Positions 911 through 40,034 of a DNA stretch of 64,000 nucleotides are shown here, in pieces (positions within the stretch are counted from its first letter, which is position 1; each line of letters starts with the position of its first letter). The position numbers and the translations under genes were made by a program. The DNA lies in the sequence record MN850651.1. One strand, 5' to 3'. Below the pieces are notes generated by a model that was given only the letters and a program-made list of their open reading frames with translations, searched no databases and was not told where the DNA came from. Origin of the DNA: Escherichia phage moskry.

Positions 911-1570
911 ATGGCAACACCAAAAGTATCATTTTCGCCTAGTGATATTCTATTTGGGTTGCTAGATCGTATTTTCAAAGATAACGCTACTGGAAAGGTT
1001 TTAATGTCTCGAGTAGCGGTAATTATTCTTTTGTTCCTAATGGCACTAATATGGTACAAAGGAAGTATTTTGCTGGATTATTATGTAAGAGCTAAGTATG
1101 ATACTTATACTGAAATAATCCAAAAAGAACGAGCTTTACGTTTTGAATCTGCGGCTCTAGAACAACTGCAAATAGTTCATATCTCATCTGGTGCAGATTT
1201 TAGTGCTGTGTATTCTTTCAGACCTAAAAACTTAAATTATTTTGTCGACCTTATAGCTTATGAAGGCAAACTACCTAGCACAATTTCTGAAAAGTCCCTT
1301 GGCGGATTCCCAGTGGATAAAACGGCCGATGAATATATAATTCATTTAAGCGGCCGTCATTTCTCATCTAAATCAGAATTTGCATTTTTGCCTACAAAAT
1401 CTAAGACTGCCGAACTTTCTTATATGTATAGCTGTCCATACTTTAATTTGGATAACATCTATGCTGGAACTGTGACGATGTATTGGTATAAGGGGAATAA
1501 TATACTTGAGGAAGATCGCTTAGCGGCTATATGCAACCAAGCGGTCCGAATACTAGGAAGGGCTAAATAA
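911..1570 (+). CDS. t: holin T (lysis inhibition holin)
   Basis: 219 aa; N-terminus MATPKVSFSPSDILFGLLDRIFKDNATGKVL with one TM segment, matches T4 holin t as I recall it; SD AAGGAGG upstream. Confidence 0.9.
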   Translation: MATPKVSFSPSDILFGLLDRIFKDNATGKVLMSRVAVIILLFLMALIWYKGSILLDYYVRAKYDTYTEIIQKERALRFESAALEQLQIVHISSGADFSAVYSFRPKNLNYFVDLIAYEGKLPSTISEKSLGGFPVDKTADEYIIHLSGRHFSSKSEFAFLPTKSKTAELSYMYSCPYFNLDNIYAGTVTMYWYKGNNILEEDRLAAICNQAVRILGRAK

Positions 1571-1843
1571 TTAGTTGTTAGAATACATCGCTAAATGACG
1601 ATAAATATTTTCAAAACCTTCATTGAATTCACTAATCAGTGTTTTCTTTTCTTCGGCAGTTAAATTTGTAATTAGTTTTCTGAACGAATTCTGATTTAGC
1701 TGCCGACCATCTTTTTTAATTCCAATCTCATTCAAGAATCCGATGAAACTTGCTCGGTCTTCAACAATATCTTCCCTAGAGAATTTAATCAAAATAGAAG
1801 CAATAGTAATAATTTCACGTACGATTTCAATGTCTTTATTCAT
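1571..1843 (-). CDS. asiA: anti-sigma70 protein AsiA
   Basis: 90 aa, MNKDIEIVREIITIASILIKFSREDIVE.. closely matches T4 AsiA from memory; position after t as in T4. Confidence 0.9.
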   Translation of the reverse strand: MNKDIEIVREIITIASILIKFSREDIVEDRASFIGFLNEIGIKKDGRQLNQNSFRKLITNLTAEEKKTLISEFNEGFENIYRHLAMYSNN

Positions 1844-1889
1844 AACGTTTTATTCATTCCACTTAGTTGATATGGATATAGTACCATTA

Positions 1890-2105
1890 TCAGTGTTGAT
1901 TGTAAACGGCTTTTTCTACGCTTTTAACGTAATTGGTATAGTCTTCCTGTTCGTACGAGTGTAAGGCTAAGAACAGAGCTAATAATTCATTATAGACTAA
2001 GGCCTCACGCTCACGTTCGGCCTCTACTACGTTCTGAAGATTATGACTCATATCGTTCCTTATAACTATCAATGTAATCCTGTATGTCAAAGAATGACAT
2101 TTCAT
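1890..2105 (-). CDS. hypothetical small early protein (start uncertain, likely internal Met)
   Basis: ORF track only; overlaps the next ORF by about 65 nt so the 5' end is doubtful. Confidence 0.25.
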   Translation of the reverse strand: MKCHSLTYRITLIVIRNDMSHNLQNVVEAEREREALVYNELLALFLALHSYEQEDYTNYVKSVEKAVYNQH

Positions 2106-2439
2106 ATTCTAGGACATTAAGAGCCCGTTCTTCAGTATAGTCAGAACCAAAGACGATAGTGATTTCACCAGGCTTCATATGATTGAAATCGACACTAAAA
2201 GGAATACGAGAACATACTTCGTCTGCCATATCTACGATAACACTACGACACACTTCTCGGTTAACCTGATAAAGCTCTGCAAGTTCTTCACATCGAATAA
2301 CAAGTTCAGTGGCAGGATTTTCTTTGATTTTAGTAAGCATAGTCTTTACCCTTATGTTTTTGTTTACGTTTAGATTGAAGTTCTGATTTCTTTTTGTCCT
2401 TATGGACGGAAGCCTTATTGAAATCATGTTTTGCCACAA
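2041..2439 (-). CDS. hypothetical acidic early protein (occupies the arn position of T4)
   Basis: ORF track; basic N-terminal extension then acidic body; alternative start at 2340. Identity with Arn not verifiable from memory. Confidence 0.4.
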   Translation of the reverse strand: MWQNMISIRLPSIRTKRNQNFNLNVNKNIRVKTMLTKIKENPATELVIRCEELAELYQVNREVCRSVIVDMADEVCSRIPFSVDFNHMKPGEITIVFGSDYTEERALNVLEYEMSFFDIQDYIDSYKERYES

Positions 2440-2642
2440 GATTGTTCATAATGCTTTATAACCTCGTTTAAACATTTACTAGTGAAAGAAAACTTTTTAG
2501 CCACAGAACATTCGATAATGTGCTCTTTCAAATCTTTAGAGTCGGTATAACCCATCTCAATAATAAAGTGGCGAATTAAAGCTTTATTCTTATCATTAAC
2601 AGAATTAAAATAATCTGCTTTAGAATCAATTATTCTCATCAT
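2424..2642 (-). CDS. hypothetical protein
   Basis: ORF track, co-oriented with neighbours, small stop/start overlap. Confidence 0.4.
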   Translation of the reverse strand: MMRIIDSKADYFNSVNDKNKALIRHFIIEMGYTDSKDLKEHIIECSVAKKFSFTSKCLNEVIKHYEQSCGKT

Positions 2643-2907
2643 CTAATTTCCTTAATTGATATTGCAACGAGCTAATAATTTCTTCGTTCATTTTAATATA
2701 CATGTCACGCAAGAAAGGTTTTAATCCATCACGAATAATTGCTAACGTATCACCTTTACATAAATTAACCAAATAAGGATGGTCTAAAGCGTCCCAACCA
2801 GGCTGATTAGCATACATACCATAGTTTTCTTCCATCATAGCATTCAGGCGTTTGATATGATTAATGTGGGCTTCAATAGCATCAATCTGGAGTTGTTTAA
2901 GATTCAT
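2626..2907 (-). CDS. hypothetical protein
   Basis: ORF track; tight packing with neighbours. Confidence 0.45.
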   Translation of the reverse strand: MNLKQLQIDAIEAHINHIKRLNAMMEENYGMYANQPGWDALDHPYLVNLCKGDTLAIIRDGLKPFLRDMYIKMNEEIISSLQYQLRKLDDENN

Positions 2908-3368
2908 TAGTAAAGGTCCTCAGAGTAAAGTTCTTTTTCATTACCACCACGTTCAATACGTACTTGTCCAGCGTAAGTTGCAATAATCATTGCTTCTTCA
3001 CGTGTCCAGTAATTAGAGTATTGATCAATAAAGCCTTGGTCGTCGCCACAAACTTGCTGCGAGACTAATTGAGGACCAACTATATCAAGTACTTCAGCCA
3101 TATCTTTAGAGTAATGACGAGCACCTGGAATAATAAGAGTTCGTCCATCTTTTAATTTAAAACGATTAGCTGCACAGACAATTCGTCGTTGATACTTTTG
3201 GTTTTCATCCCAATACAGAGTCTGCCAACAGATTTCAGGAACTTCATCTAAAACATTTTGTTCTGTATATTCACCGCCGTAAGAAGCTAATTTAGCAGCC
3301 AGACTTTCCGGAGTCTCACGCGACAAAGCTTTATCTAACAGAGCTAAACGTTCTTTAAAAGTTTTCAT
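2907..3368 (-). CDS. hypothetical protein
   Basis: 153-aa ORF, start overlaps the stop of the upstream gene (coupled). Confidence 0.5.
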
Positions 3369-8320: not shown

Positions 8321-9268
8321 TTATTCTGTAAATAATTCAGTAACGTCTGAAATTACTTCATAACGACAAGTACGCATCTTAGCATCGCCATAGTCAACCG
8401 GGATGGATACAACATCACGTGGATGAACTTTAACCTTAACAACTTTATCTGAGCTAGAACCAAAGTAACGAATATATGATTTAGCACAAACATGTAGACC
8501 ACGGGAGCAGGTTTGAGTATCATCATCGTTAACACGAGTACGAGGCATTGAAACAACTTTACCTGGCGAGTTATCAAATGTGCCACTATAGCAATCTAAA
8601 TAGTCTTTACGAACTACTTTCCACGCATAGAAATGCCCATCTTCAGTGATTTCAATATCGTTTGCAACCAAGAAGTCGAATAAACGTTGTACAGCTTTTT
8701 CGCTTGGGTTTTCTAACAGGTTTTCAAGGAACGGCAGATAGAATTTAAAGTCTTCGCCTTTTTCCATAGAATCAATAATACGATTAACCAGTCCTGAACG
8801 AATTTCTATACCTTGATAAAATAAACTACCACCTTCAATAGTAACATTACCGTCAACAAACTTAGTAATAGCTTTCTTGATGTTAATAAGTTCGACAGCT
8901 TTACTAAGGTTTCCTGCGACCAGATTAGCTTTAATTTCTTCAAAATTTGCATGACTTGATGGGGTCGCATTGTATGCTACGCGTCCTTCAATGATTGAAA
9001 TAAATTTAGATGACGCGTTCCATACGATTTCTGGACGATGACCTGTAATAATAGGTTCATTATTTTCTGGAACTTCTTCGATTACATAAGAGGCATCGTT
9101 TGCTTCAGGGACAACGCCTTCTGCTTTAAAATTCTTAACAATCTTACGAAGAGTATCTGTTGAAATGTCGAAGTAATCGGCAATTTCTTTACGAGTCCAT
9201 TTGCCTGATTTGACCAGGCCGTAAGCTTCTAACTGTTCTTCTTGGGACAAGCATTTGATATTGTACAT
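8321..9268 (-). CDS. rIIB: rIIB protein
   Basis: 315 aa; MYNIKCL.., ..RVNDDDTQTCSRGLHVC.KSYIR.FGSSS.KVVKVKVHPRDVVSIP.. match T4 rIIB from memory. Confidence 0.95.
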   Translation of the reverse strand: MYNIKCLSQEEQLEAYGLVKSGKWTRKEIADYFDISTDTLRKIVKNFKAEGVVPEANDASYVIEEVPENNEPIITGHRPEIVWNASSKFISIIEGRVAYNATPSSHANFEEIKANLVAGNLSKAVELINIKKAITKFVDGNVTIEGGSLFYQGIEIRSGLVNRIIDSMEKGEDFKFYLPFLENLLENPSEKAVQRLFDFLVANDIEITEDGHFYAWKVVRKDYLDCYSGTFDNSPGKVVSMPRTRVNDDDTQTCSRGLHVCAKSYIRYFGSSSDKVVKVKVHPRDVVSIPVDYGDAKMRTCRYEVISDVTELFTE

Positions 9269-9277
9269 AATGTTTCC

Positions 9278-11491
9278 TTATTTGGCCGCTTCCACGGCCT
9301 TCATGAATTTAACGATTTGAGCGACCTGTTCTTTAGAAAGAGTACCACGTCGTCCCATGTATTCTGACACAATATGATAATTGGTTTCAAATTCAATAAC
9401 CATTTTATCATCATTATCGTAAGCATTATCTTTAAGCTTATCGAAAATTTTAGCACACAATTCTAACTTCTTATTCAGGTCTGTATTAGTAGCACCTGCG
9501 AATCGATTCCATCCCCAGCGATTATTTACTGTTGAGAGTTTTGCAAAGTCTTTACTGATTTCTTTGTTCTTAGAGCTAAAATACTTACTAAGGAAGTTAA
9601 GCTCTTCGTTACGAGTAATATGATTCAAATAAGGCTGTGCTCTACGACTTGGTGATACATACTCATCATAATCCACTTTATCAATTAGCGTAATATAGTC
9701 GTTAATTGATTTTTCGAACAAGCATTCTACTTCACCAAGTTTACGAACTTTCTTAGCAATCTGTGGACGGACTACAGTGAACTCTTTAATACCTGACAAA
9801 TCAGCAATACGGGTCAAGAAATTAGAGTCATAGTTCAACCAACCTTTATCTGCGTCAAGACATTCAGCATTAGAACGATTACGAACTATAGCATAACCTT
9901 GGATTTCATCAGCTTCACTCGCTGGAATAAAGAGATCTTCCGATACCCAAACATCGTTTTCATTCTTAAAGAACCGATGAGCACTTGGGGATTTAGGACG
10001 AGGCCCATTAGAACGAGTCTTGACTTCAATCCACGGCTTAACGATTTGTAAAAGCTCTGAAGTCTTGTACATGTTAATGTTGTCGCCATCAAAGATAACT
10101 TTAAGACGTTCCAGAAGTTTCATTGCATCTTCGTCTGTAGGGTCAACGAATAGTACGCTTTTACCAAAACCTCGTGGAACTTTACCGTTTAATTTAACCT
10201 CGTCTTTAGACATTTCAATTGAATTAAGAGCTCGCATTAACGGAACGCGTCCCTTAACGTCGTCAATAACAATTTCAACGTTTTTAATGTTAATGCCAAT
10301 CAGACTGTTAATTGAAATAGTTGCCGATGAGCTACCACTTTCACGAATACGACGAAGACGAGGGGATTCAACGATATCGTATACGACGCCAAGATTACAC
10401 CACTCAGGCCCCATTTTAAAACGTTTGTACAACTCAGAATAAGTTAGTTGTTCTTTAGAATATTTCAGTGATTCAATATTAGAACCAGCTTTTTCCATGT
10501 ATTTACGAGCGGTATAACCAAGAGAATCAATTTCACGGAACACATGACGTGGATATTCACAATCAATCCATTTCTTAGAATCTTCAGCAAATAATTTTGC
10601 ATCGATTTCTGCAACGCGTTTATGGATATTTGCTACTGTACGTTTATCAAATGACAATGCTTCACGAGACGGGGCTACATCTAGTTCACCCATAGGGAAT
10701 TTAATATAAGCTGTAGTGCATCGCGTCATCATCCATGTTTGTTCTTTAATAACACTTCCGATTGGATATACAATACCACCATAAACAGCCATGATATTAC
10801 CACGTTCACCCCATGGAGCTTCCTTGGCCAAATATACATCGTCAAATTCAGGAAAGTATTTAATATCTTTAACACCACGAACTTCTGCAATATCACCTAG
10901 AGGACGCATAACATATGCAATTTCGGATGCGAACTTTTCAAAATCTTCTGGGTTAACCGGTACAACTACTTCTACACCCGTACGGTCATCAGGGCCCATC
11001 TTATCTACAAAGGTTGGCTTAATCTGTGGACCACTGTCATCTTGGTAGATTACGTAACCACGAACTTCACCGTTGTGATAAGACGTAAGGTTAAACGTAT
11101 CAGTATATGCTAGTGGAGCTTTAGAGCCGAGTCCGAATCCACCAATGAAATCGTTACTCGATGTTTTAGTTGAAGCAAAATATGAGTTATAGATTCCTGG
11201 CTCTTCGTCATTACCTCGAATGGTGAAATCACTCATACCAGGACCAAAGTCTCGAACTACAAAACGTGGGTCTAAACGACCTGGAGCCTGAACAATAAAT
11301 TTATCAGTGCAACCATTAAGAATTTGTCCATCGATACAGTTTGTGATTAATTCACGTACACAAGCCAATTCTTTGTTTGTATAAAGGTCGTTAGACAAAA
11401 TCTTATAAACTTTGCTATTGCCTTGAATAGTGAATGCTGTGCTCTTACCGCCTGAACCAATAATCGTTTCTTTAGCCGTTTCAATAATCAT
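9278..11491 (-). CDS. rIIA: rIIA protein
   Basis: 737 aa; N-terminal ATPase-like region (..VRELITNCIDG..FGPGMSDF..GGFGLGSK..) matching T4 rIIA. Confidence 0.95.
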   Translation of the reverse strand: MIIETAKETIIGSGGKSTAFTIQGNSKVYKILSNDLYTNKELACVRELITNCIDGQILNGCTDKFIVQAPGRLDPRFVVRDFGPGMSDFTIRGNDEEPGIYNSYFASTKTSSNDFIGGFGLGSKAPLAYTDTFNLTSYHNGEVRGYVIYQDDSGPQIKPTFVDKMGPDDRTGVEVVVPVNPEDFEKFASEIAYVMRPLGDIAEVRGVKDIKYFPEFDDVYLAKEAPWGERGNIMAVYGGIVYPIGSVIKEQTWMMTRCTTAYIKFPMGELDVAPSREALSFDKRTVANIHKRVAEIDAKLFAEDSKKWIDCEYPRHVFREIDSLGYTARKYMEKAGSNIESLKYSKEQLTYSELYKRFKMGPEWCNLGVVYDIVESPRLRRIRESGSSSATISINSLIGINIKNVEIVIDDVKGRVPLMRALNSIEMSKDEVKLNGKVPRGFGKSVLFVDPTDEDAMKLLERLKVIFDGDNINMYKTSELLQIVKPWIEVKTRSNGPRPKSPSAHRFFKNENDVWVSEDLFIPASEADEIQGYAIVRNRSNAECLDADKGWLNYDSNFLTRIADLSGIKEFTVVRPQIAKKVRKLGEVECLFEKSINDYITLIDKVDYDEYVSPSRRAQPYLNHITRNEELNFLSKYFSSKNKEISKDFAKLSTVNNRWGWNRFAGATNTDLNKKLELCAKIFDKLKDNAYDNDDKMVIEFETNYHIVSEYMGRRGTLSKEQVAQIVKFMKAVEAAK

Positions 11492-11503
11492 ATTTTTCTC
11501 TCA

Positions 11504-11704
11504 TCACAAGTTACGTTTAAAAATTTCTGCTACTTCAAGAAGTTCTTCTTTAGTAGCTGTATCGGTTTGTATTTTATATCGAATTTCTTTAAAGCGTTCT
11601 TTAAAGGACTCTGCTGACTCGATATCAAAAAATCTTTGGATAAGCCGGAATTCCCGGAGCACTGCTTTATCAAAAAGTTCCAAGTCCACGTTATATGTTC
11701 TCAT
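11504..11704 (-). CDS. rIIA.1: rIIA.1-like small protein
   Basis: 66-aa ORF directly downstream of rIIA, as in T4. Confidence 0.55.
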   Translation of the reverse strand: MRTYNVDLELFDKAVLREFRLIQRFFDIESAESFKERFKEIRYKIQTDTATKEELLEVAEIFKRNL

Positions 11705-11796
11705 AATATTCTCTTCAGTAGATTCCTAGGGCACTATTACTAAAGACCATATAATTTATCATCTTATGTGTAATAGTGCCTCAGGCTATTCAGGAT

Positions 11797-12897
11797 TTAC
11801 GCTGTGAAGATTTTATCCCACATCGCAACAACTGCATCTCGATTATACTTCTTCCATACTGCTTCAGCACGTTTAACTCGAGCTTCGTATGTGTCAGTGA
11901 ATTCTAATACAGCTTTTGTGTAAAGCGCAACTACTTCTTTCTTAGGAGTAGAGGAATCAATTTCTACACGCACAGTATCTGGGTCGTATTCGAATGTCGC
12001 ATGAGGATAATCCTTAAAAACTAACTGGATTACAGGGACACCTTTAGAGATGGCTTCAATAGAACTATTCTCTACCGTACCTGTGTCAGGACACGTATTA
12101 ATAAGTGCTTTAGCTGTTTTAAGACATTCCATAATTTCACTGTGTGGAGCATCAATAATAACAGGATATTTAGCTGGTGGTGCCCATTTGCTTGGACAAT
12201 AACCAATACCATTTTCGCCTAGTGCTTTAATCGCTTCAAGAGCAACATCAGTACGACGCATTTTAGTGTCATAACGTTGTGCACTAATAATCAGATCAGT
12301 CGCCGGAAGAACTTCAGGTTTCTCATTCAAACAAATAACCGGATAATCTTCGGCTTCAAACAACGGATTTGCTCGCCAATAATCATAATCGATTTTGTCA
12401 GTCAGACCTGAAGTCATATAACAATATTTGCGTTCAAATTCACGGAAGGCTTTAGTAGGAGCATAACTCTTACCGCCATTCTTATGAATTTGAATAGTTT
12501 GGTCCCAAATTTGAACAATGCCACGAGATACCGGTTCAAATGGTGTTGCCATAAAATTCTTGTGAACTTTAGAGAGACCTGCGTCTTTAATTGCCTGAAC
12601 GGTTAGTTTAGTCGGTTCCATAGTAACAACAAAATCGTATTCATGGATGCCGGCTAGTTCAACAATCTTACGAGCCATAGTATAACTCATACCTAGACTG
12701 AATTTAGTCAGATGACCAACAGGATGGTGTGTAACTTTCCAGTCACCAAACGTGTCGTTATCAAAGCCGATATAATCAATATCAGCACCGATGGACACAA
12801 GATATTTCAACACGTTCAAATGAACCGCTTCAAGACCACCTTGTACACGTTCTGGGTTAAATGGGACTGCGCGAGATGGGATAAACATAACTTTCAT
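11797..12897 (-). CDS. putative glycosyltransferase (GT-B-like), candidate DNA sugar transferase
   Basis: 366 aa; C-terminal ..ENSSIEAISKGVPVIQL.. resembles the E-x-G-x-PV(I/V) region of GT-B transferases; sits between rIIA.1 and gene 39 where T4 has gene 60/mobA. Fold assignment is inference only. Confidence 0.45.
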   Translation of the reverse strand: MKVMFIPSRAVPFNPERVQGGLEAVHLNVLKYLVSIGADIDYIGFDNDTFGDWKVTHHPVGHLTKFSLGMSYTMARKIVELAGIHEYDFVVTMEPTKLTVQAIKDAGLSKVHKNFMATPFEPVSRGIVQIWDQTIQIHKNGGKSYAPTKAFREFERKYCYMTSGLTDKIDYDYWRANPLFEAEDYPVICLNEKPEVLPATDLIISAQRYDTKMRRTDVALEAIKALGENGIGYCPSKWAPPAKYPVIIDAPHSEIMECLKTAKALINTCPDTGTVENSSIEAISKGVPVIQLVFKDYPHATFEYDPDTVRVEIDSSTPKKEVVALYTKAVLEFTDTYEARVKRAEAVWKKYNRDAVVAMWDKIFTA

Positions 12898-12923
12898 AAT
12901 TAAGCCTTATTAAAATTAAAATG

Positions 12924-12941
12924 AAGCTCCCGAAGGAGCTT
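12924..12941 (-). terminator. hairpin overlapping the gene 39 stop codon
   Basis: AAGCUCC-CGAA-GGAGCUU stem-loop followed by an AU-rich tract. Confidence 0.45.
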
Positions 12942-14757
12942 AGGACATCCATTCTTTACGAAGTTCTGAATCATCACCCATCAACATTTCAAAGAGTTCT
13001 TTCCAATTTTCAGGAAGTTTAACTACGTCGTACACAGGGTTCTGAATCATTTCACGATATTCTGTCTTTTCAAGGGAGCCCAATCCCTTGATGTATCGAA
13101 TACTATGCTTAGGCAGTGTATCTTTAACTTCTTCATACTCAGCTACAGTATAAAACCATTTTTGAGTTTTGCCAATTTGTGCAATAATTACAGGCGTTTT
13201 AACAAAGCGAATACGTCCTTGTTCAAACAATTCAGGCCAATTACTAAAGAAAGCAAGCAAAGCCGGATAGATACTTCCAAGACCGTCATGATCTGCATCG
13301 GTCATAATTGCAATATTACGATAGTTCGTATTCTCTGCCTTTTCACCAAGAATAAGACCTGTGATAGCACAGATATCGAAGAGCTCTTTGTTCTTCATCA
13401 TATCAGCATATGACATACCCCAGCTATTCATCACCTTACCACGTAATGGGAATCCGCCGTGTAGTTCACGGTCACGAACATCAATGAGATAACCAATTGC
13501 AGAATCACCTTCTGTTAAGAACAATGTCGTATCTGCATCTTTACCACATTGGTTAGCTTTAATATGCTTATGAACCTTAGCTTTAGTTGCCTTTTTAGCT
13601 GCTTTAGTTTCTGCAGCCTTTTCTGCTGCCAATTTACGAGCTAATGCTGCTTCAACAATAGGCATAATCAAGGCTTCGTTTTTAAGAAGTGCCTGAGCAA
13701 TTTTCTTAGCATCTAATTGGATATGATTACGAATATCACCATACGTTGACGTTAAACGTTCTTTAGTCTGAGAATCAAAACGCATGTTGCTCATGTCTCT
13801 AATAAACATCAACATTGTGAGACATTCTTTAACACGAGCTTTAGTGACTTCAATACCCTTATATTTCTTTTTAATACCCGGCAAAAGATGTTCGCAGATA
13901 TCATCCATTACACATTCAACATGATGACCACCATTTTTAGTATGGATGTTATTCACATAAGTTAAATGACGGAAGCCGTCTGGTGATGTTGTGAATGCTA
14001 TAGAGACTTTATCATTTTCTTGAATGATGTTATCTTCGCCAAATTGTTTAGCAAATCGTTTAAAATTACCATCAACCTTTTTACCATTAAATGTGAACTT
14101 GATATCAGGATAAACGACTGCCAATGTTTGAAGTCGGTCTAAAGTAATATCTAAATAAATTTGAGATAAATTATGCTCTTCAAATGAAGAGAAATCAGGA
14201 GTGAAGATTACTTTAGTGCCTTTACCTTTAGATTTCTTAGAAGACCATGATTTGTTTTCCATTCCGTTTGAACAGTTAACAGTGATTTCATTTTCGCCAT
14301 CTGACGTGATGCCTGTAAACAACGTAGAGAAGATATTAGTTAAACTACTCCCGACGCCGTTCATACCACCAGTCTTGCGTTCAGAGTCATCACCAAAGTT
14401 ACCACCGGCCTTTGGAATAGTCCAGGCTGCTACAGGCCCAGGAATTTGTTCACCTGTTTGGTCGGTAACTAAACCTTGAGGAATACCACGTCCATTATCT
14501 TCCACCGAAACTTGATTATTTTTAATTTGCACATCAATTTTATTTGCAAACTTAAATGATGTACGAATAGCTTCATCAACCGAGTTGTCAATAATCTCAT
14601 CGATTAATTTAACCAGACCAGGAACATATTCAACTTGTTGATATTTACCAAACAAAAAACGCTCATGTGCTTCTTTAGCTGAAGAACCAATATACATACC
14701 ACTACGTTTCTTAATATGTTCTACATCTGACAATACCTTAATTTCATTTTTAATCAT
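12940..14757 (-). CDS. 39: DNA topoisomerase II large subunit gp39 (unsplit, GyrB-like ATPase + Toprim)
   Basis: 605 aa single ORF; ..DNSVDEAI.., ..ENEITVNC.., C-terminal Toprim ..IMTDADHDGLGSIYPALL..; includes the region encoded separately by gene 60 in T4. Confidence 0.95.
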   Translation of the reverse strand: MIKNEIKVLSDVEHIKKRSGMYIGSSAKEAHERFLFGKYQQVEYVPGLVKLIDEIIDNSVDEAIRTSFKFANKIDVQIKNNQVSVEDNGRGIPQGLVTDQTGEQIPGPVAAWTIPKAGGNFGDDSERKTGGMNGVGSSLTNIFSTLFTGITSDGENEITVNCSNGMENKSWSSKKSKGKGTKVIFTPDFSSFEEHNLSQIYLDITLDRLQTLAVVYPDIKFTFNGKKVDGNFKRFAKQFGEDNIIQENDKVSIAFTTSPDGFRHLTYVNNIHTKNGGHHVECVMDDICEHLLPGIKKKYKGIEVTKARVKECLTMLMFIRDMSNMRFDSQTKERLTSTYGDIRNHIQLDAKKIAQALLKNEALIMPIVEAALARKLAAEKAAETKAAKKATKAKVHKHIKANQCGKDADTTLFLTEGDSAIGYLIDVRDRELHGGFPLRGKVMNSWGMSYADMMKNKELFDICAITGLILGEKAENTNYRNIAIMTDADHDGLGSIYPALLAFFSNWPELFEQGRIRFVKTPVIIAQIGKTQKWFYTVAEYEEVKDTLPKHSIRYIKGLGSLEKTEYREMIQNPVYDVVKLPENWKELFEMLMGDDSELRKEWMS

Positions 14758-14803
14758 GTTGTCTCCTCGTTATGAAGGTATTCTATCATCCGAAATCTAA
14801 AGC

Positions 14804-14820
14804 AAAAAGGGCCGAAGCCC
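14804..14820 (-). terminator. terminator hairpin after the 14821-15243 gene
   Basis: GGGC-CGAA-GCCC preceded on + strand by an A-run (U-run on - strand). Confidence 0.5.
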
Positions 14821-15243
14821 TTATTTAAATTTAATTTTCTGAAGTGCATCAATTGCAGCCAAACGCCCTTGTTCACTTTTAACTGTAATGACCACATCGC
14901 CTGATACGATCACCGAACCATCAACAAATTCTATAGAGCCTTTTTTGAAATCGACAGCTGTATCTGGTTCCGGAACTTCTTCAAAGAATTTAAATTCTGC
15001 ACCATAAAGCAGAATATCACCTTGCATACTAATGATTGTACGTCCAGGTCCATCGGTTTCAGCGGCAATCATTGAAACACCGTAACCAATCATCTCTTCT
15101 ACAATAAAATCTCTTGATAATAAAACTGTATGCAGAGTAGTGTTAAGACGTTTACCAGTTGTATTAAGAATTCTCAAGAAATTATCTTCTTGACCTTTGA
15201 TAATACGATATTTCTTACCAACTTCAAAACCTTTAAAAGCCAT
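14821..15243 (-). CDS. hypothetical protein (140 aa)
   Basis: ORF track; position corresponds to the 39.x/goF region of T4, identity unverified. Confidence 0.5.
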   Translation of the reverse strand: MAFKGFEVGKKYRIIKGQEDNFLRILNTTGKRLNTTLHTVLLSRDFIVEEMIGYGVSMIAAETDGPGRTIISMQGDILLYGAEFKFFEEVPEPDTAVDFKKGSIEFVDGSVIVSGDVVITVKSEQGRLAAIDALQKIKFK

Positions 15244-31876: not shown

Positions 31877-32239
31877 TTAAAAGAATTTAAATTTTTTCTT
31901 GGTTCGTTCATTAAAAGCTTGTTGTACTTGCATTGTAACACATTTTTCAACATGTGGTGCAAGTTCTGCTTTTCTGTCCTGATCAAGAACTGCAAAGTCC
32001 ATTACGATTTTACCATCAACCCAGTCTAGTTTTGTAATATAGACTATATGATGAGAACCGTCTTCAAGTGTAATCAGAATCTCTTGAATGACATTTTCCA
32101 TTGCTGAACGGACAATTTTAAGAGATTCATTAAACACTCGTTCTTTGCGAATGTCTTCCCCTTCCGAAGAAGGGGATTCATCAACGATTTCTAGATTTAA
32201 ATCATCGAGATTATTCATCGAAATCTTCCATTTCGTCAA
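31877..32239 (-). CDS. 40: gp40-like protein (by position between gene 41 and uvsX)
   Basis: 120-aa ORF; synteny only. Confidence 0.45.
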   Translation of the reverse strand: MTKWKISMNNLDDLNLEIVDESPSSEGEDIRKERVFNESLKIVRSAMENVIQEILITLEDGSHHIVYITKLDWVDGKIVMDFAVLDQDRKAELAPHVEKCVTMQVQQAFNERTKKKFKFF

Positions 32240-33383
32240 GGTCGTTTTCTATATCTGCTGCAGACGGAGCATCAGAAGTTTTAACAGGAACTTTAGTTGT
32301 TGCTTTGCAATTAATAAGGTCGTTAACAGCGTCATCAACTTCTTTAATAGAAGAGATAGCACCTAGTTTATATTTAGTTTCAATTGCATCTCGGAAAGGT
32401 TTGTGTTTAAACAAAGGTCCCCAGAATTCTACACAATCAGTAGCTTTAGCACGCCATGATTTTTCTTCACGAATCATTTCACCTGTTTCTTCGTCAAGGA
32501 ATTCACGAGCATACCAACCGGCTTTAGGCTTAACTACAAAACCAATTTCAGTTGCCATTTCTAACAAGCCACTGAATGGGTCAATACCGCCATCAAAATT
32601 AACCGTGATTGGGAAAGTAGATTTCTCTTTAACTGTACGAGATTTTTCTGCTTTCAACGTGAAGTCATAACCGGTCAATTCTGTACCTTCTTTAACCTGA
32701 CGTTTAGAGATAAAGAATACAGTGTTAGCAGAGTAAAGAATACCTGTACCACCACCCATAATCTCTTTAGGATATAGTCCGCCGATTTCCATTGCTGTAT
32801 GGTTGATTGCAACACACGGAATATCTTTAATAGTCAGATAAGGAGTCACAATACGGAACAGAGATTTAAGTGCCTTAGCACGAGACATATCACCTACAAC
32901 TTTCTCGTTCAATGCATCTTCGGTTTCTTTCTTAGATGCAGTATTACCAATCGAGTCAATAAAGATAATAACTTTATCACCGCGTTCAATAGCGTCAAGC
33001 TGATTAGTCATATCGACTTTAAGTTGTTCGACAGACTGAATTGGTGTATGAACTACACGGTCTAAATCGACACCCATCGAACGGAAGTAAGATTCTGAAG
33101 CACCGAATTCTGAGTCATAAAACAAACAGATTGCATCTTTATATTTCTTCATATACGCTGCAACCATAGTTAGTCCAAACAATGTTTTAAAATGTTTAGA
33201 AGGTGCAGCAAAAATAGTCAAGCCTGATTGCAATCCTGCATTCAGAGCACCACCTAGTGCAATATTCAACATCGGAATACGAGTAGGGACTTCATCACGA
33301 TTATTAAACAGCTTAGACTTAGTCAAGTCTGCAGTCATTTTAGAAGTAGAAGCTTTAATCAGACGAGATTTTAAATCAGACAT
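32211..33383 (-). CDS. uvsX: UvsX RecA-like recombinase
   Basis: 390 aa; ..RIPMLNIALGG.., Walker A-like ..FAAPSKHFKT.., overall match to T4 UvsX. Confidence 0.95.
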   Translation of the reverse strand: MSDLKSRLIKASTSKMTADLTKSKLFNNRDEVPTRIPMLNIALGGALNAGLQSGLTIFAAPSKHFKTLFGLTMVAAYMKKYKDAICLFYDSEFGASESYFRSMGVDLDRVVHTPIQSVEQLKVDMTNQLDAIERGDKVIIFIDSIGNTASKKETEDALNEKVVGDMSRAKALKSLFRIVTPYLTIKDIPCVAINHTAMEIGGLYPKEIMGGGTGILYSANTVFFISKRQVKEGTELTGYDFTLKAEKSRTVKEKSTFPITVNFDGGIDPFSGLLEMATEIGFVVKPKAGWYAREFLDEETGEMIREEKSWRAKATDCVEFWGPLFKHKPFRDAIETKYKLGAISSIKEVDDAVNDLINCKATTKVPVKTSDAPSAADIENDLDEMEDFDE

Positions 33384-33481: not shown

Positions 33482-34030
33482 TTAACGAGCCCATTTAATG
33501 ATTTCTGTAATCAAATAATTACGTTCGCTTGCATTAAATCCTATAACTTTGTTAGCACCATCATGATTAAGTAATTGATACGTTTGGATTTTGTTATGAA
33601 TTGCAAACTCTTCAAAATATGAAATGACTGTATTAAAACCGAATGAAGACAAAGTAATAAGGTCGTCTTCAAAACTTTCAGTCATTTCGTTACGTGTTAA
33701 AATAATTGTGAACACATCATGGTTTTGGCAAAGACGAACATAATCCTGTTCATAAACATCAAGAACCGAGTCCGCATCTTGTCGAATACGTCCATAAACC
33801 CAGTTACTAATATATCCACGGTCTAACAGATAAATCTTAGTAGGGTCTAAATAATTCAACATCGTTTCGAAACAGCCGACTTCATTTCGAGACTTAACAT
33901 CGAAACGCCCATCAACTGTTCGTTTAGGGAAATCAATCTTTACATATCTTTCACTAATTTCCATTATGTCATTAATGAAAGTTGTTTTACCAGCATTATC
34001 CGGCCCGTCTACTAAAATAATTTTAGCCAT
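33482..34030 (-). CDS. P-loop kinase (nucleotide- or sugar-kinase-like), function unknown
   Basis: 182 aa; Walker A ..ILVDGPDNAGKTTF.. near the N-terminus, ..YLLDRGY.. downstream; not present at this position in T4. Confidence 0.5.
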   Translation of the reverse strand: MAKIILVDGPDNAGKTTFINDIMEISERYVKIDFPKRTVDGRFDVKSRNEVGCFETMLNYLDPTKIYLLDRGYISNWVYGRIRQDADSVLDVYEQDYVRLCQNHDVFTIILTRNEMTESFEDDLITLSSFGFNTVISYFEEFAIHNKIQTYQLLNHDGANKVIGFNASERNYLITEIIKWAR

Positions 34031-34031
34031 T

Positions 34032-34931
34032 TTATTCCTCGATTACGACATCTTCGTATTTAGGTATATTATACGGTGAAGAAATTAAAGCATTAAAGTA
34101 GATGAACTCACCAAGACCTGGATGGAATACTTCTTCAGGATTTTCGAAATATTGAATCTTCGGACGTCCTTTAAGAATTTGATAGTACTCAGTTTTAGTT
34201 GGATTAAAAATTCGAATCAGCGCTTCTTCAGGATACTTATTTCTGTCGAAGCTATTATTTGGATCGGTTATATAAAGCGGTTGACCTAATTGAATTGCGC
34301 ATTCAACCACTTGTTCAAAACGATAACACGGGTCACTAATTCGAAATGGATGAAAAATACCATCTAGATGAATAGGAGCCAAATCACCTACAAGACGCTG
34401 CATGATGGAAGGACGTATAACTTTCTGAGTTACGATAATCTTATTACCATCTGCACCTGCGTTAACCAGCACTTCTTTTTGACGTTCATTCAACACAGTA
34501 GTTTGAAGTGAACTATTAACTGACAACATATCGGTTTTTAAGAATTCGTCAATATAAAAACGTGGTTTATTAGGGTCTGCCGTGATATTGAAATTGAATT
34601 CTACATCAAAAGCGCCGTCATAACCAGTGATATCTGTTATTAGAAAATCACAATCATAATAAGCAATTAATGAATCAACCACAAATTCATTTTCAGACCA
34701 GAAATATTTACGAGTGTTATACGCGTTATCTTTATACCATAATGGAACAAACTTAAATTCCGGGAAAAGACGTTCACATTCTTTAATATCAGATGCATTA
34801 CGTGGATATGTAATCACATCACCTGGATTAGCACGGTGCAAATGAAGTTGGAAGTTGCCATCCTTAAGGATAGCATACTGTCCAGTTTCATAAGACCGCA
34901 TACTCAAAATAGGTACGCGGAAAATAGCCAT
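34032..34931 (-). CDS. hypothetical protein (299 aa) occupying the T4 beta-glucosyltransferase position
   Basis: ORF track; stop/start coupled to the kinase and hydroxymethylase genes; no motif I can assign with confidence. Confidence 0.5.
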   Translation of the reverse strand: MAIFRVPILSMRSYETGQYAILKDGNFQLHLHRANPGDVITYPRNASDIKECERLFPEFKFVPLWYKDNAYNTRKYFWSENEFVVDSLIAYYDCDFLITDITGYDGAFDVEFNFNITADPNKPRFYIDEFLKTDMLSVNSSLQTTVLNERQKEVLVNAGADGNKIIVTQKVIRPSIMQRLVGDLAPIHLDGIFHPFRISDPCYRFEQVVECAIQLGQPLYITDPNNSFDRNKYPEEALIRIFNPTKTEYYQILKGRPKIQYFENPEEVFHPGLGEFIYFNALISSPYNIPKYEDVVIEE

Positions 34932-35647: not shown

Positions 35648-35689
35648 GTTTACCTCAATACAATTTATTATATACTCAATTCGTAAAGC

Positions 35690-35929
35690 TTATTTGAATT
35701 TCTTAGCAATGTTGATATAACGTAAAGCTTCAGAATCTATACTTCCAAGAACACTATGAAGGAATGCATCAGCGTAGTATTCTAGTTGAACAGGTTCTTT
35801 AATCGCTTTAGCCGCTTTAGTTTCAAACAGGCCCATAAGGGCCTTTTTAAGAATTTGTTCGTTGCTATTAATTTTTATGGTCAAAATCTCTTCATTAAGT
35901 TGGTGGTTAAAAGTTTTTCTAGAAATCAT
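35690..35929 (-). CDS. hypothetical protein (79 aa)
   Basis: ORF track; overlaps the upstream gene by 4 nt. Confidence 0.4.
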   Translation of the reverse strand: MISRKTFNHQLNEEILTIKINSNEQILKKALMGLFETKAAKAIKEPVQLEYYADAFLHSVLGSIDSEALRYINIAKKFK

Positions 35930-37104
35930 TCCGGGTACCTCAAAGCGTCGTCAGAGTTAGTTATATCAATAATAGATATAGAATTTTCTGATAACCCATT
36001 TTTAGATAACTGGCGTTTATAATATCTTTCACAATATGTACACGTCGTCCCGCAGATTTCATTAGCACAATCGAAATCTGGATGTCTGAACCACCTTTTT
36101 TCTAAAAAGCCGTCTAACAAAGAGGTTTCAATATTTACCGTATGTGAAAACTCGGTCTCATTTTCAAGAGTGAAAATGGTCTCTAAAGGCTTCCACAATT
36201 CCAACAAATTACCTTCAAACTTTTCAGAAGCATAAGCTTCAAGAACTTTCAAAATGTAGTCGGTGCTACCTGTACGTCCCGAAACTTTAAATTGAGTGAT
36301 ACCAATATCGTTATAAAGTTTCAAATCTTGGGGACGAACAAAACGAGTTCTCAACCAGTTAAATGGGTCTGTATCACGAGCTTTAATACAGTGCTGCATA
36401 GGATATCCGTTTAAGGATTTAGCATCATCAGCCGTAACATCAGTACTATGGAAAATATAGCAAGAGTCACGATAGCTACAATGTGTTGTATACCCTTTAC
36501 CAGCATTAGAACAGAACTCATTTACAAGAACTTCAAATATTATATTGTTCTTATTGCAAAACTCTGCTGCACGCTTCAGGAAAGAAACTGAACGGTTCTT
36601 ATGAATTCCACAGCAGACCTTTTTGATATTATATTGGTCATGCAAGTATTTGATTTGAGTTACAGCATCGACATGTAGAATTGTTGAAACTTCAATCTCA
36701 ATGTCTTTATTGACTTCACGAACAATTTCCATAACAACAGGGTTAGCGATAGTAATACGCCATACGCCTATTGACCAAAGATACTGAACATAATCCTGAA
36801 TAGCTTTCTTCTTCCACTCAACTAGTTCTCTTTTTGAACCAGGATTTATCGTGTTGAGTGTATAGTTAAAGCAAATACCTAATTCGTTACAACGTTTAAC
36901 GTAGTCTTCTAACATCTTTTTGTCAACGTCAGGAAGCCTAAAATCAGGTCTGGCTGCTACAAAAGCCATTTCTCTTGTAGAGCCGTATACTTCGTTTATC
37001 AAGCTATTAGGATAAGTTTTATTGAGCTCTACGATTTTATCAAGAAGAGCTAAATCAAAATTCGTTCCGATTTTAAAAGTATTCATTTTTTTTTTGCATC
37101 TCAC
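35926..37104 (-). CDS. Cys-rich protein of unknown function (392 aa); candidate metal-dependent enzyme/transferase
   Basis: ORF track; Cys clusters (..EFCSNAGKGYTTHCSYRDSCY.. and C-terminal ..CANEICGTTCTYC..); part of the sugar module. Confidence 0.5.
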   Translation of the reverse strand: MRCKKKMNTFKIGTNFDLALLDKIVELNKTYPNSLINEVYGSTREMAFVAARPDFRLPDVDKKMLEDYVKRCNELGICFNYTLNTINPGSKRELVEWKKKAIQDYVQYLWSIGVWRITIANPVVMEIVREVNKDIEIEVSTILHVDAVTQIKYLHDQYNIKKVCCGIHKNRSVSFLKRAAEFCNKNNIIFEVLVNEFCSNAGKGYTTHCSYRDSCYIFHSTDVTADDAKSLNGYPMQHCIKARDTDPFNWLRTRFVRPQDLKLYNDIGITQFKVSGRTGSTDYILKVLEAYASEKFEGNLLELWKPLETIFTLENETEFSHTVNIETSLLDGFLEKRWFRHPDFDCANEICGTTCTYCERYYKRQLSKNGLSENSISIIDITNSDDALRYPE

Positions 37105-37145
37105 GTTAATTGATGCGATGGTTTTTGCAGGTCTTACTTAAATTA

Positions 37146-37547
37146 TTATAGATTAGGTTTATATGATTTAAATGTTTCGAATTCGCCTTTATTCATAAGA
37201 GCTTTGAATTCGTCAGGACGCATAGCTTTGTCGTCGATAATCCAATCATATACTGGTTTATGTGTTAGCAAATTATGGTACTTCAAGCCAATGTTTGCTA
37301 AGTTCTGAATCAGACTTGGGAGAATGTCAATTGCTATACGACCAGGACCTACTGACTTCATACCGCGAGCAGTGTAAAGCGTTATGGTATGCCCTGCATC
37401 ATACAGGGCATTAATGGCAGACACCATTTCGACGTCTGGTTTGAAGTTCACGTAATCACGATTGTTATTCCACTCTGTTATACAATCATCGACATCAAAA
37501 CAAAGATTAAGCATGTTTTCTACACGGTGCATTAGATTCGTTCCCAT
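37146..37547 (-). CDS. HAD-superfamily phosphatase (small, cap-less)
   Basis: 133 aa; motif I ..LCFDVDDCIT.., motif II ..TLYTARG.., motif IV ..WIIDDK.. Confidence 0.55.
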   Translation of the reverse strand: MGTNLMHRVENMLNLCFDVDDCITEWNNNRDYVNFKPDVEMVSAINALYDAGHTITLYTARGMKSVGPGRIAIDILPSLIQNLANIGLKYHNLLTHKPVYDWIIDDKAMRPDEFKALMNKGEFETFKSYKPNL

Positions 37548-39217
37548 TGATGAGTGATATCGCCACCAATTGGGCGATAAGAAACACCAGTTTCTTTATC
37601 AGTTAGTACCCATTTACCAGGATTTTTTGTAATCAGAGTAGCCGTTACAGGTTCTGCTACGTCATAACTAATAGAGCCGTCTTGAAGTACACGGCCCATG
37701 TTACGTAATTGCTTAGTCAGAAGTTCCATACCTTTATAATATGCAGCTACCGCTTTAAGTGGATTATTCTTGAAATAACCACCTAATGCAATCCAGATAA
37801 TTGCCACTGCCAAATGATGATACTCGTTAAACGAACTCATCTTTCCATATTTGTAAACTAATGGATTGATGTTAATAGTCACATTACAAGTTGTTTCATC
37901 AATAGTAAACTGTCCCCAGGTCGGATTAGCGTTGAATTCATCATAACCTGAAACAGCATAAAGCACTTTAGCTTCATCGTACAATTTTGGCCCGTAAATC
38001 TTGGTTTCCCCAAAATATCCACGAGGGTCGATAAACTTGACTTCGCCGTTATCAGTAATCATAGTATTACTGAAGTTCGGGTCACCATGAATAACAGAGT
38101 ACTGTCCCTGAGAACGGTTATGATAACGAATAAGGTGTTCTAAAGCTTGTTTCAGCATTGGCTTCAGACGCCCAATCTTAGTGTAGTTCACATGGGTGAT
38201 TTTACCAAATGAATCAATCAATGGTTGAATGCTTTCACAACGATCAATAACTTTCGTATAGAATTCTTTAGTGAAATCACGGCGAACAGTTTCAGGACTT
38301 ACAAAATAAGTGTCTGTGCTGAATTTCAGTGCATCTAAAATTGCATCAACAATTTGTGGACGAGCAAGACTTGATTTGGATTTAATATATTCAAATGCCG
38401 GCTTACCTTTAATGCGTTCCATTTCAAAGTTATTTTCATTAACAGAAACTAACTGAGGAACTGAATCTGATTTCACTTTAAGATACCATGAAATCTCATC
38501 TTTCTGAAGAGCTCGACCCTGTTCGGTTAATGCGAATTTAGTTACAGTTTCTTCACCAATTTCAACTGCATTAAAACTACGATTAAGTTCACGAACTTCA
38601 TGAGCTTTTTCAAGTTTAGGCATATCACCTAAATCAATTAGATTCATAAGCTCTGATTTATTGAATGCGCTGCCGTAAAGGAATTCTACGAAATCGCGTC
38701 CTTTGCAGTATTCATGAATTTCCTCATCGGTAGAACCCATATAGAATTCCCAGTCTTTGAACTGATAAATTCCTACAACATTACCACCTGTTGAACCTAC
38801 GTTAGTGATATTTTCACCGTCGAAATTATATCGACATTCGTCACCCTTAACATAGATTGCGTTAACATTCCAAGACCATGAACCAAAATCGGGAATAATA
38901 TCACACCAGTTAACAATTACATTATGGCCGTCTAAATCTTTGTGTAATTTAGCAAGAGCATAAGCAGAACCGTACGCTTCATCAACTGTACGAATAGTCA
39001 CATTGAACCCTTCTTGCTCACAATAAGCTCGAACAGTTTCAGCAAATTTTGAATGAACTACTACAATAATTTCATCTGCGCCAAGGTCAGAATAAATTGT
39101 ATACAAATTGCTCAGAATAGTGTCTTGTTTATAGTTAACAAGCACCTTAGGAATATGATGCGTTATTGGATATAAACGAGTCGCCAGTCCAGCACCAAGA
39201 ATAACAGCTTTTTTCAT
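37532..39217 (-). CDS. bifunctional sugar-1-phosphate nucleotidyltransferase (N) / APH-choline-kinase-like anomeric sugar kinase (C)
   Basis: 561 aa; N-terminus MKKAVILGAGLATRLYPITHHIPKVLV (G-x-G-x-R-L-x-P-x-T..PK-x-L nucleotidyltransferase signature); C-terminal ..VIHGDPNFSNTMIT..VKFIDPRGYFG.. (H-G-D-x-x-x-N and I-D-x-x kinase motifs). Confidence 0.7.
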   Translation of the reverse strand: MKKAVILGAGLATRLYPITHHIPKVLVNYKQDTILSNLYTIYSDLGADEIIVVVHSKFAETVRAYCEQEGFNVTIRTVDEAYGSAYALAKLHKDLDGHNVIVNWCDIIPDFGSWSWNVNAIYVKGDECRYNFDGENITNVGSTGGNVVGIYQFKDWEFYMGSTDEEIHEYCKGRDFVEFLYGSAFNKSELMNLIDLGDMPKLEKAHEVRELNRSFNAVEIGEETVTKFALTEQGRALQKDEISWYLKVKSDSVPQLVSVNENNFEMERIKGKPAFEYIKSKSSLARPQIVDAILDALKFSTDTYFVSPETVRRDFTKEFYTKVIDRCESIQPLIDSFGKITHVNYTKIGRLKPMLKQALEHLIRYHNRSQGQYSVIHGDPNFSNTMITDNGEVKFIDPRGYFGETKIYGPKLYDEAKVLYAVSGYDEFNANPTWGQFTIDETTCNVTININPLVYKYGKMSSFNEYHHLAVAIIWIALGGYFKNNPLKAVAAYYKGMELLTKQLRNMGRVLQDGSISYDVAEPVTATLITKNPGKWVLTDKETGVSYRPIGGDITHQWERI

Positions 39218-39245
39218 GTTGAAGTCCTCATTGGTAAGTAGGAGT

Positions 39246-39270
39246 ATTGTACACTATTCTAGTTAAAGCA
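39246..39270 (-). promoter_or_regulatory. candidate MotA-dependent middle promoter (MotA box TGCTTTA, 12 nt, -10 TACAAT) upstream of the nucleotidyltransferase/kinase gene
   Basis: Read on - strand: GAATGCTTTAAC..TACAAT about 30 nt upstream of the ATG. Confidence 0.4.
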
Positions 39271-39398
39271 TTCATACTTTGCTTGTAGTCCAATCATAAT
39301 CCATCCAATTACAAGTGTTGGAATCATTACTGGAGCCGTTAAGCTCCAGTAGATAGTCATGACAAGCATCAATAGTAAAAGTCCTATTGTTATTGCTT

Positions 39399-40034
39399 TC
39401 ATTGTTCGCCTCGTAACATGGCACCTAGTGCACCGCCTGGATGGAACTTAAGGAAGTCATTAGAGGTAAATCCACGCTCAGACGAAAGGTTGATAGCGAA
39501 CGTATCGATAAGCGCTAACAACAATGTAGTGGACATAGTCGGAGCTAAAGAGTTCTCGTCAACTTCTACCGCGATACCGGTACAGAACGTATAATCAAAA
39601 AGAGCTTCGTATTCTTGTGGAATGTCAGGGTTACAATGCAACAGAATCTGTTTGACGTTCGGGCGAATCATTTTAAGATGCTTAGCCACGCCTATCATTT
39701 CTTCAGTTTTACCAGAACGACTAATATGAATCAACACATCATTAGGCGCAATGAATCCTGCATCACCGTGAGAATAATGCCCAGTGTTCAAGTACATACT
39801 AGGGATACCGAGTGAAGCAAATGTCTCAGAAGCTTTAGTTGCAATATTAGCATTCTTACCAACACCTGTAATAATTACTCGGCTTTCATAATTACTAAGT
39901 CCCGGGCGTCGAAGAGTTTCTAGAATAGCATTATAACGAGCAGGGTTTTGACTAATTACTTTGGCCATAGCGGCCAAAGAAGAAGCTTGTTTTATGATTG
40001 CGTCAATAGCGATAGTAATAGGAGTAGTTTTCAT
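39399..40034 (-). CDS. SIS-domain sugar-phosphate isomerase (arabinose-5-phosphate isomerase-like, no CBS domains)
   Basis: 211 aa; ..ITGVGKNANIATKASETFASLGIPS.., ..HISRSGKTEE.. typical SIS (KpsF/GutQ/KdsD-type) motifs. Confidence 0.65.
   Translation of the reverse strand: MKTTPITIAIDAIIKQASSLAAMAKVISQNPARYNAILETLRRPGLSNYESRVIITGVGKNANIATKASETFASLGIPSMYLNTGHYSHGDAGFIAPNDVLIHISRSGKTEEMIGVAKHLKMIRPNVKQILLHCNPDIPQEYEALFDYTFCTGIAVEVDENSLAPTMSTTLLLALIDTFAINLSSERGFTSNDFLKFHPGGALGAMLRGEQ

Follow-up and report, generated by a model that had tools for sequence, protein, structure and literature searches.

What is the function of the gene for a 366-residue protein that lies between rIIA.1 and the topoisomerase gene 39 of Escherichia phage moskry? 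The stretch analysed here, referred to as the window, comprises 64,000 nucleotides of the phage DNA (sequence record MN850651.1), and our analysis suggests that the product of this open reading frame (ORF) is a soluble glycosyltransferase of the GT-B type (GT4-like) which is confined to arabinose-modifying T-even-like phages and serves as a chain-extending second arabinosyltransferase; we give this reading a probability of about 80%. The distribution of the protein family, the published chemistry of phage DNA and in vitro data on proteins of phage DLP3 together point to a chain-extending role on DNA. The gene itself is a rediscovery of a known one, correctly recognised as a GT-B sugar transferase in the original prediction, a note made from the letters of the window. 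The novelty that this note implied does not stand: the gene was predicted to encode a GT-B arabinosyltransferase in 2018 (Thomas 2018, PMC6024577), its position between rIIA and the topoisomerase gene is stated in PMC13390438, the role of second transferase has already been proposed in print (PMC13326640, PMC13390438; by citation also Mahler 2025 and He 2026), and there is a crystal structure of a 98%-identical protein with uridine diphosphate (UDP). Arabinosylated 5-hydroxycytosine is a recently characterised hypermodification of phage DNA, and the result for the window is the correct annotation of a known gene, which raises no new question.

Identity and fold of the 366-residue protein

The gene and its neighbours are arranged as follows.

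8321..9268, downstream of the transferase gene: rIIB (ORF list)
9278..11491, downstream of the transferase gene: rIIA (ORF list)
11504..11704, minus strand: rIIA.1 (66 residues), the downstream flank of the transferase slot (Pfam T4_RIIA1, E = 2e-30)
11797..12897, minus strand: 366-residue GT-B glycosyltransferase, ortholog of RB69 ORF003c/gp3 (ORF list, homology, fold)
12940..14757, minus strand: unsplit topoisomerase II large-subunit gene 39 (605 residues), equivalent to T4 gp39 and gp60 joined, with neither the 60.1/mobA insertion nor the gene 60 bypass

The ORF lies between rIIA.1 and gene 39, as the original prediction had it, and the order rIIA.1, transferase gene, gene 39 is also that of RB69, where RB69ORF003c (366 residues) occupies the equivalent place, and of Bas46, whose ortholog bas46_0103 is annotated as a 'putative hmC-arabinosyltransferase' (hmC, hydroxymethylcytosine) in the order rIIA.1, transferase, topoisomerase. 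The protein is identical to RB69 gp3 (RB69p003, NP_861693.1) at 361 of 366 positions (99%). In a PHROGs search the unannotated family phrog_8302 covers residues 1-366 of 366 (E = 8e-222), and family members were found in 211 of the 50,697 phage records compared by tblastn, which together indicate a genuine conserved gene and not a chance ORF. When window positions 11400-15000 were compared by megablast, 150 phage records covered at least 80% of the query, nearly all at 95-99% identity, and every one of them is a Mosigvirus, that is, an RB69-like T-even phage (DCP548, F31, PhAPEC2, APCEc01 and Bas46 'ChristianSchoenbein', for example); judged by these matches, the window belongs to a Mosigvirus genome. 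Base composition is even across the transferase and gene 39 region, with a guanine-plus-cytosine content of about 0.37-0.40, so the gene is not marked as compositionally foreign. The locus varies in the Shigella phage JK45 (MK962757.1), in which the complete transferase gene of 1101 bp and, after it, an ORF of 411 bp with a repeat of the gene's 3' part occupy positions 1501-3104; the JK45 locus exceeds that of the window by 503 bp, and the extra ORF could reflect either a true partial duplication in tandem or an error of assembly.

Modelled with AlphaFold2 from an alignment of 10 sequences, the protein gave a mean predicted local distance difference test score (pLDDT) of 91.2 and a predicted template modelling score (pTM) of 0.87, and the model displays an alternating strand-helix pattern with two Rossmann-like domains separated by an inter-domain cleft, the arrangement of a GT-B fold. 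Foldseek comparison of the model with the PDB placed two entries at the top, 9IR0 ('phage HY126 glycosyltransferase with UDP') and 9IQZ (the apo form), at template modelling (TM) scores of 0.95-0.96. The same two entries, both released on 2025-07-16, were matched at E = 4e-161 in a profile search of PDB sequences, and a single-sequence search gave 98% identity to 9IQZ over the full length. Fold recognition, which had been called for when the C-terminus was first described as GT-B-like, thus bears that description out, and the moskry protein would be expected to bind UDP as its 98%-identical relative does in 9IR0. The next Foldseek matches are GT4-type GT-B enzymes (BshA, tetrahydrobiopterin glucosyltransferase, LmbT, PimA, MshA and WaaG; E = 1e-11 to 1e-9, 10-15% identity). 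Lee et al. list the same neighbours for RB69 gp3, namely 2gej and, at z = 26, 6kih (PMC13326640, Table 1).

As PimA, BshA, WaaG and sucrose-phosphate synthase are among these structural neighbours, the protein could by their example glycosylate a target other than DNA, such as a host envelope lipid or lipopolysaccharide, a small molecule or a phage protein. We regard this as most improbable. The family is confined to phages with the arabinose/5-hydroxycytosine module and lies inside that module in Acinetobacter phages, and homologs act on DNA in vitro (PMC13326640). Nor does it look like a general bacterial family: an exhaustive phmmer search of 1.84 billion cluster representatives returned 16 at E <= 0.001 and about 10 clusters at E <= 1e-10. 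A word-indexed sequence search found 5 related proteins, or 10 with a profile, and neither these searches nor phmmer yielded a sequence bridge to bacterial GT4 enzymes. On this evidence the family is a narrow, phage-specific clade.

The stretch quoted in the original prediction (...ENSSIEAISKGVPVIQL...) corresponds to residues 276-292 of the protein in the ORF list, and its motif, ENSSIEAISKGVPV, holds E276, invariant in 10 of 10 family members, together with the nearly invariant E281. Likewise conserved in the alignment of the 10 members are G20-G21 and R208. Thomas 2018 aligned G20, R207 and E281 to phosphate- or ribose-contacting residues of the T4 alpha-glucosyltransferase, the counterpart of E281 being the ribose-binding Glu, E311 (PMC6024577), which agrees with the earlier description of the motif as part of the nucleotide-sugar-binding region. 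In the enzyme, G20-G21, R208, E276 and E281 would line the motif regions. The region expected to carry an E-x7-E motif reads D271-TGTV-E276-NSSI-E281 in the sequence, where position 273, eight before E281, is Gly.

The modification module and the order of sugar transfer

To which acceptor would such an enzyme transfer its sugar? The window contains a modification module at 33482-40034, about 21 kb from the 366-residue gene, with seven genes between uvsX (32211-33383) and the DNA polymerase gene (40075-42786).

33482..34030, minus strand: nucleotide-kinase-like protein, ortholog of RB69 gp45 (98.4% to RB69p045; role from PMC13326640, Table 1)
34032..34931, minus strand: 299-residue module transferase, ortholog of RB69 gp46:47 and proposed first arabinosyltransferase (98.7% to RB69 ORF046c+047c by tblastn; role from PMC13326640)
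34931..35647, minus strand: thymidylate-synthase homolog, ortholog of the RB69 gp48 5-hydroxy-deoxycytidine monophosphate (5-hydroxy-dCMP) synthase (Pfam Thymidylat_synt; 236/238 to RB69 gp48)
35926-37104, minus strand: peptidase-U32-like protein, 392 residues (Pfam)
37146-37547, minus strand: small phosphatase-sized ORF, listed as a HAD-type phosphatase (Pfam)
37532-39217, minus strand: bifunctional nucleoside triphosphate-transferase/kinase fusion, 561 residues (Pfam)
39399-40034, minus strand: SIS arabinose-5-phosphate isomerase (Pfam)

The module proteins are 98-99% identical to RB69 gp45, gp46:47, gp48, gp50, gp51 and gp55, with 99% for the sugar-activation genes at 35926..40034 (gp50, gp51 and gp55). 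For RB69 gp50, the ortholog of the U32-like protein, Lee et al. offer only the tentative description 'sugar or heterocycle reductase' (PMC13326640). With this distance and with a 299-residue transferase of the module's own, the claim of a second sugar transferase unlinked to the sugar-activation module holds. The two transferases were also considered as paralogs; BLASTP shows no sequence similarity between them.

The acceptor named in the original prediction, hmC-DNA, has to be replaced. RB69 gp48 experimentally makes 5-hydroxy-dCMP, and RB69 DNA contains mono- and di-arabinosyl-5-hydroxycytosine with the ether link directly at C5 and no hydroxymethyl group (PMC13326640); the identity of the window's thymidylate-synthase homolog to gp48, taken with this chemistry, indicates that hmC is the wrong acceptor. 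The DNA of the Mosigvirus NP likewise carries arabinosyl-5-hydroxycytosine and not hmC (PMC13326640, PMC13390438), at a ratio of mono- to di-arabinosyl-deoxycytidine of 1:4 (Durham Collection paper, PMC13390438). The D169N signature of 5-hydroxy-dCMP synthases is ambiguous, as a MAFFT alignment to an approximate E. coli ThyA sequence puts Ala at 169 and Asn one residue earlier, and the synthase assignment therefore rests on the match of 236 of 238 residues to RB69 gp48.

In the pathway that we propose, the thymidylate-synthase homolog would make 5-hydroxy-dCMP, the activity known for the 99%-identical RB69 gp48, and cytosine in DNA would be replaced by 5-hydroxycytosine. The module genes at 35.9-40 kb would make UDP-arabinofuranose (UDP-Araf) from ribulose-5-phosphate, a conversion demonstrated for the HY126 enzymes according to PMC13326640; in that paper's summary of He et al. 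2026, HY126 AfhE and AfhF prepare UDP-arabinose from arabinose-5-phosphate. The module-linked 299-residue transferase is proposed to put the first arabinose on the 5-hydroxyl, and the 366-residue enzyme, binding UDP-Araf in its C-terminal Rossmann domain, would add a second arabinose onto the first. The product would be di-arabinosyl-5-hydroxycytosine, which predominates in Mosigvirus DNA, and the DNA of the window phage is predicted to carry both the mono- and the di-arabinosylated base. This division of labour is that of Lee et al. 2026, in whose proposal gp46:47 would be the first arabinosyltransferase and gp3 'beta-arabinosyltransferase 2' (PMC13326640). Arabinosylated 5-hydroxycytosine protects against restriction enzymes, the Brig1 glycosylase and type I CRISPR-Cas according to PMC13216743, which cites Mahler 2025, and a thicker sugar coat is expected to improve the evasion of DNA-targeting host defences. 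The same paper, again citing Mahler 2025, mentions that an arabinosyltransferase called 'Aat' was deleted in Bas46.

The distributions of the two transferases bear on the order of transfer. In the tblastn comparison the 299-residue module transferase was found in 348 of the 50,697 records, among them phages of Escherichia, Acinetobacter, Klebsiella, Shigella, Serratia, Enterobacter, Kosakonia, Proteus, Yersinia, Providencia and other hosts (Escherichia phages JS10 and Bp7 carry this type at about 66% identity), while the 366-residue family is present in Mosigvirus at 95-100% identity and in Acinetobacter T4-like phages at about 40-43%. Phages with the module-linked transferase alone lack, by this comparison, the 366-residue family. 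Mosigvirus genomes have one copy of the family and Acinetobacter T4-like phages two adjacent copies (two matching places per Acinetobacter record, among the matches listed); in phage Apostate, orf070 and orf069 (orf069 40% identical to the 366-residue protein) stand in tandem inside the module, beside the kinase and the first transferase, and by gene order in Apostate we take them as probable counterparts of DLP3 gp77/gp76. Two copies at 43% were also found, as in the Acinetobacter T4-like phages, in OZ038340.1 ('Tegunavirus sp. BRC001', 167 kb), whose organism label may be wrong.

Published chemistry parallels this distribution, and more copies of the family appear to go with more sugars. Thanatos is mono-arabinosylated and is described as having only one arabinosyltransferase, which is syntenic with that of the module (PMC13326640); RB69 and NP, with one copy of the family, have mono- and di-arabinosylated DNA (PMC13326640, PMC13390438), while Bas46 and Bas47 are described as doubly arabinosylated in PMC12923530, which cites Mahler 2025; and DLP3 DNA is tri-arabinosylated (PMC13326640), two copies being the number in Acinetobacter phages of this kind. 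Furthermore, RB69 DNA becomes tri-arabinosylated in vitro when both DLP3 gp76 and gp77 are supplied with UDP-Araf (PMC13326640), which shows that members of the family use DNA as a substrate and can attach arabinose to arabinose. By analogy, chain extension would be carried out by the 366-residue protein itself.

These observations bear on an older proposal, namely that the 366-residue protein is the primary transferase which adds the first arabinose to the modified cytosine and that the 299-residue protein does something else. This was the original suggestion of Thomas 2018, for whom ORF003c was the only convincing GT-B candidate in RB69 (PMC6024577), and it agrees with the annotation of the Bas46 ortholog, with the high confidence of the GT-B fold, which includes a crystal structure with UDP, and with the lack of any Pfam match in the 299-residue protein. 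However, many module-bearing phages have no homolog of the 366-residue protein (348 against 211 records), the mono-arabinosylated Thanatos is reported with the module-type transferase only, and DLP3 gp76/gp77 are inactive on 5-hydroxycytosine DNA and extend DNA that is already arabinosylated (PMC13326640), and we therefore consider this proposal unlikely. Quite improbable in our view is that the protein needs a complex for chain extension, or sets a specific linkage or anomer, and is needed but insufficient for di-arabinosylation. Such an arrangement is suggested by the activity of DLP3 gp76 and gp77 only in combination (PMC13326640), and the crystal may contain oligomers, to judge by the chain H label and the four chains across two PDB entries; against it, Mosigvirus has one copy of the family, the 366-residue protein is not similar to the 299-residue transferase, and there is no evidence for a partner.

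Several points nevertheless weigh against our assignment of the 366-residue protein as a chain-extending second arabinosyltransferase. A Pfam scan of the protein gave no family at E <= 1, Glycos_transf_1 and Glyco_trans_4 included, so the GT4-like assignment rests on structure comparison and the PDB match and not on a sequence profile. The number of phages with characterised DNA chemistry that underlies the correlation with copy number is small. Neither DLP3 transferase was active by itself or on 5-hydroxycytosine DNA (PMC13326640), so that activity may require a partner or a particular state of the acceptor. Lee et al. also state that their experiments do not tell at which level, nucleotide or DNA, the first arabinose is added (PMC13326640).

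Gene 39 and the surrounding stretches

If the transferase gene had taken the place of T4 gene 60 and mobA, as was first claimed, gene 60 should be missing from the window, yet its sequence is present within gene 39. The topoisomerase gene is indeed unsplit, a single ORF of 605 residues with HATPase_c (GHKL ATPase), DNA_gyraseB and Toprim/TOPRIM_C domains in Pfam and a match to phrog_543, 'DNA topoisomerase II large subunit', in PHROGs. Residues 1-474 correspond to T4 gp39 residues 1-473 with 79% identity and residues 473-605 to T4 gp60 residues 27-159 with 86%, indicating that gene 60 is fused and not replaced; identity to RB69 gp39 is 96%, and the RB69 GenBank annotation already records that gene 39 is uninterrupted and ends in the gene 60 sequence. 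T4 has the 60.1/mobA insertion between gene 39 and gene 60, and its spacer between rIIA.1 and gene 60 is 54 bp. The window has neither a separate gene 60 with the 50-nt bypass nor the 60.1/mobA insertion, since one 605-residue ORF spans both parts. Of what was said to be replaced, only the 60.1/mobA insertion is absent, and the transferase gene is an additional gene in the gap from rIIA.1 to the end of the topoisomerase gene.

The RB69 reference gp39 (NC_004928) differs from the window gp39 by a scrambled block at residues 15-57 (window 14590-14715) and is one residue longer, whereas T4 gp39 agrees with the window across these residues. Such a block would result from frameshift errors that cancel each other in the old RB69 sequence, which is what it looks like, and errors of the frameshift type have been reported by Lee et al. 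for RB69 genes 46/47 and 52/53 (PMC13326640).

One structural element was found between gene 39 and the transferase gene.

12924..12941, minus strand: stem of 7 perfectly paired bp closed by a UUCG tetraloop (AAGCTCC-TTCG-GGAGCTT), which overlaps the stop codon of gene 39

This hairpin sits 27 nt upstream of the transferase ATG and may act as an RNA-stabilising or partially terminating element between the two genes. A sigma-70 promoter scan around the transferase gene gave 10 sites against 12.5 expected by chance, and as this is no better than chance we claim no promoter for the gene. On the other side, where 92 bp separate the stop codon of the transferase gene from the start codon of rIIA.1, there is at 11725-11785 a 16-nt inverted repeat with arms CCTAGGGCACTATTAC and GTAATAGTGCCTCAGG (88% complementary, 29-nt spacer). 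The PhAPEC2 record annotates two terminators somewhere within the stretch that matches window 11400-15000. Upstream of gene 39, at 14821-15243, an ORF of 140 residues takes the position of RB69p005 (hypothetical protein), where T4 has 39.1. Its match in PHROGs is phrog_622 (unknown function), with a further, weak match of the last 38 residues to a goF-annotated PHROG.

Comparison with known systems

The closest known counterpart is RB69 gp3, which shares with the moskry protein its length of 366 residues, 99% identity, the position between rIIA.1 and an unsplit gene 39, and the genus. The five substitutions, from window to RB69, are E16D, T56N, I231A, C257R and T327I, and nothing functionally notable was detected among them. 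The HY126 glycosyltransferase (9IQZ apo, 9IR0 with UDP) is nearly as close, 98% identical over its full length with TM scores of 0.95-0.96, and differs by six substitutions. Both entries presumably belong to the paper of He et al. 2026 (Nat Chem Biol).

The Acinetobacter tandem pair, represented by Apostate orf070/orf069, belongs to the same family (40-43% identity over the full length, GT-B fold) and differs in arrangement, with two tandem copies inside the module as opposed to the single Mosigvirus copy about 21 kb away from it. The DLP3 pair produces tri-arabinosylation, and both of its proteins are needed in vitro (PMC13326640).

More distant are the GT4-type retaining GT-B enzymes, namely BshA (3MBO), PimA (2GEJ), MshA (3C4Q), WaaG and sucrose-phosphate synthase (6KIH), at only 10-15% identity. 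In contrast to these, the 366-residue protein has no Pfam Glycos_transf_1 or Glyco_trans_4 match, and its proposed acceptor is a sugar on DNA; its motif reads E276-x4-E281, in which an E-x7-E is not clearly recognisable. The GT4-like scaffold is normally retaining. There are two further options, and we regard it as doubtful that either of them applies: that a retaining-type GT4-like scaffold performs the Araf-on-Araf transfer labelled beta by Lee et al., with stereochemistry and acceptor recognition unusual for the fold, or that the Mosigvirus enzyme acts alone where the Acinetobacter paralogs need each other.

To the T4 alpha- (1Y6F/1XV5) and beta-glucosyltransferases no sequence homology was detectable with the tools used. 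The moskry system would differ from theirs in its sugar, which is arabinofuranose, in its base, which is 5-hydroxycytosine instead of hmC, and in its acceptor, as the transfer is probably from sugar nucleotide to a sugar already on the DNA. In role, the 366-residue enzyme would be closer to the beta-alpha-glucosyltransferase of T2 and T6, which makes gentiobiosyl-hmC.

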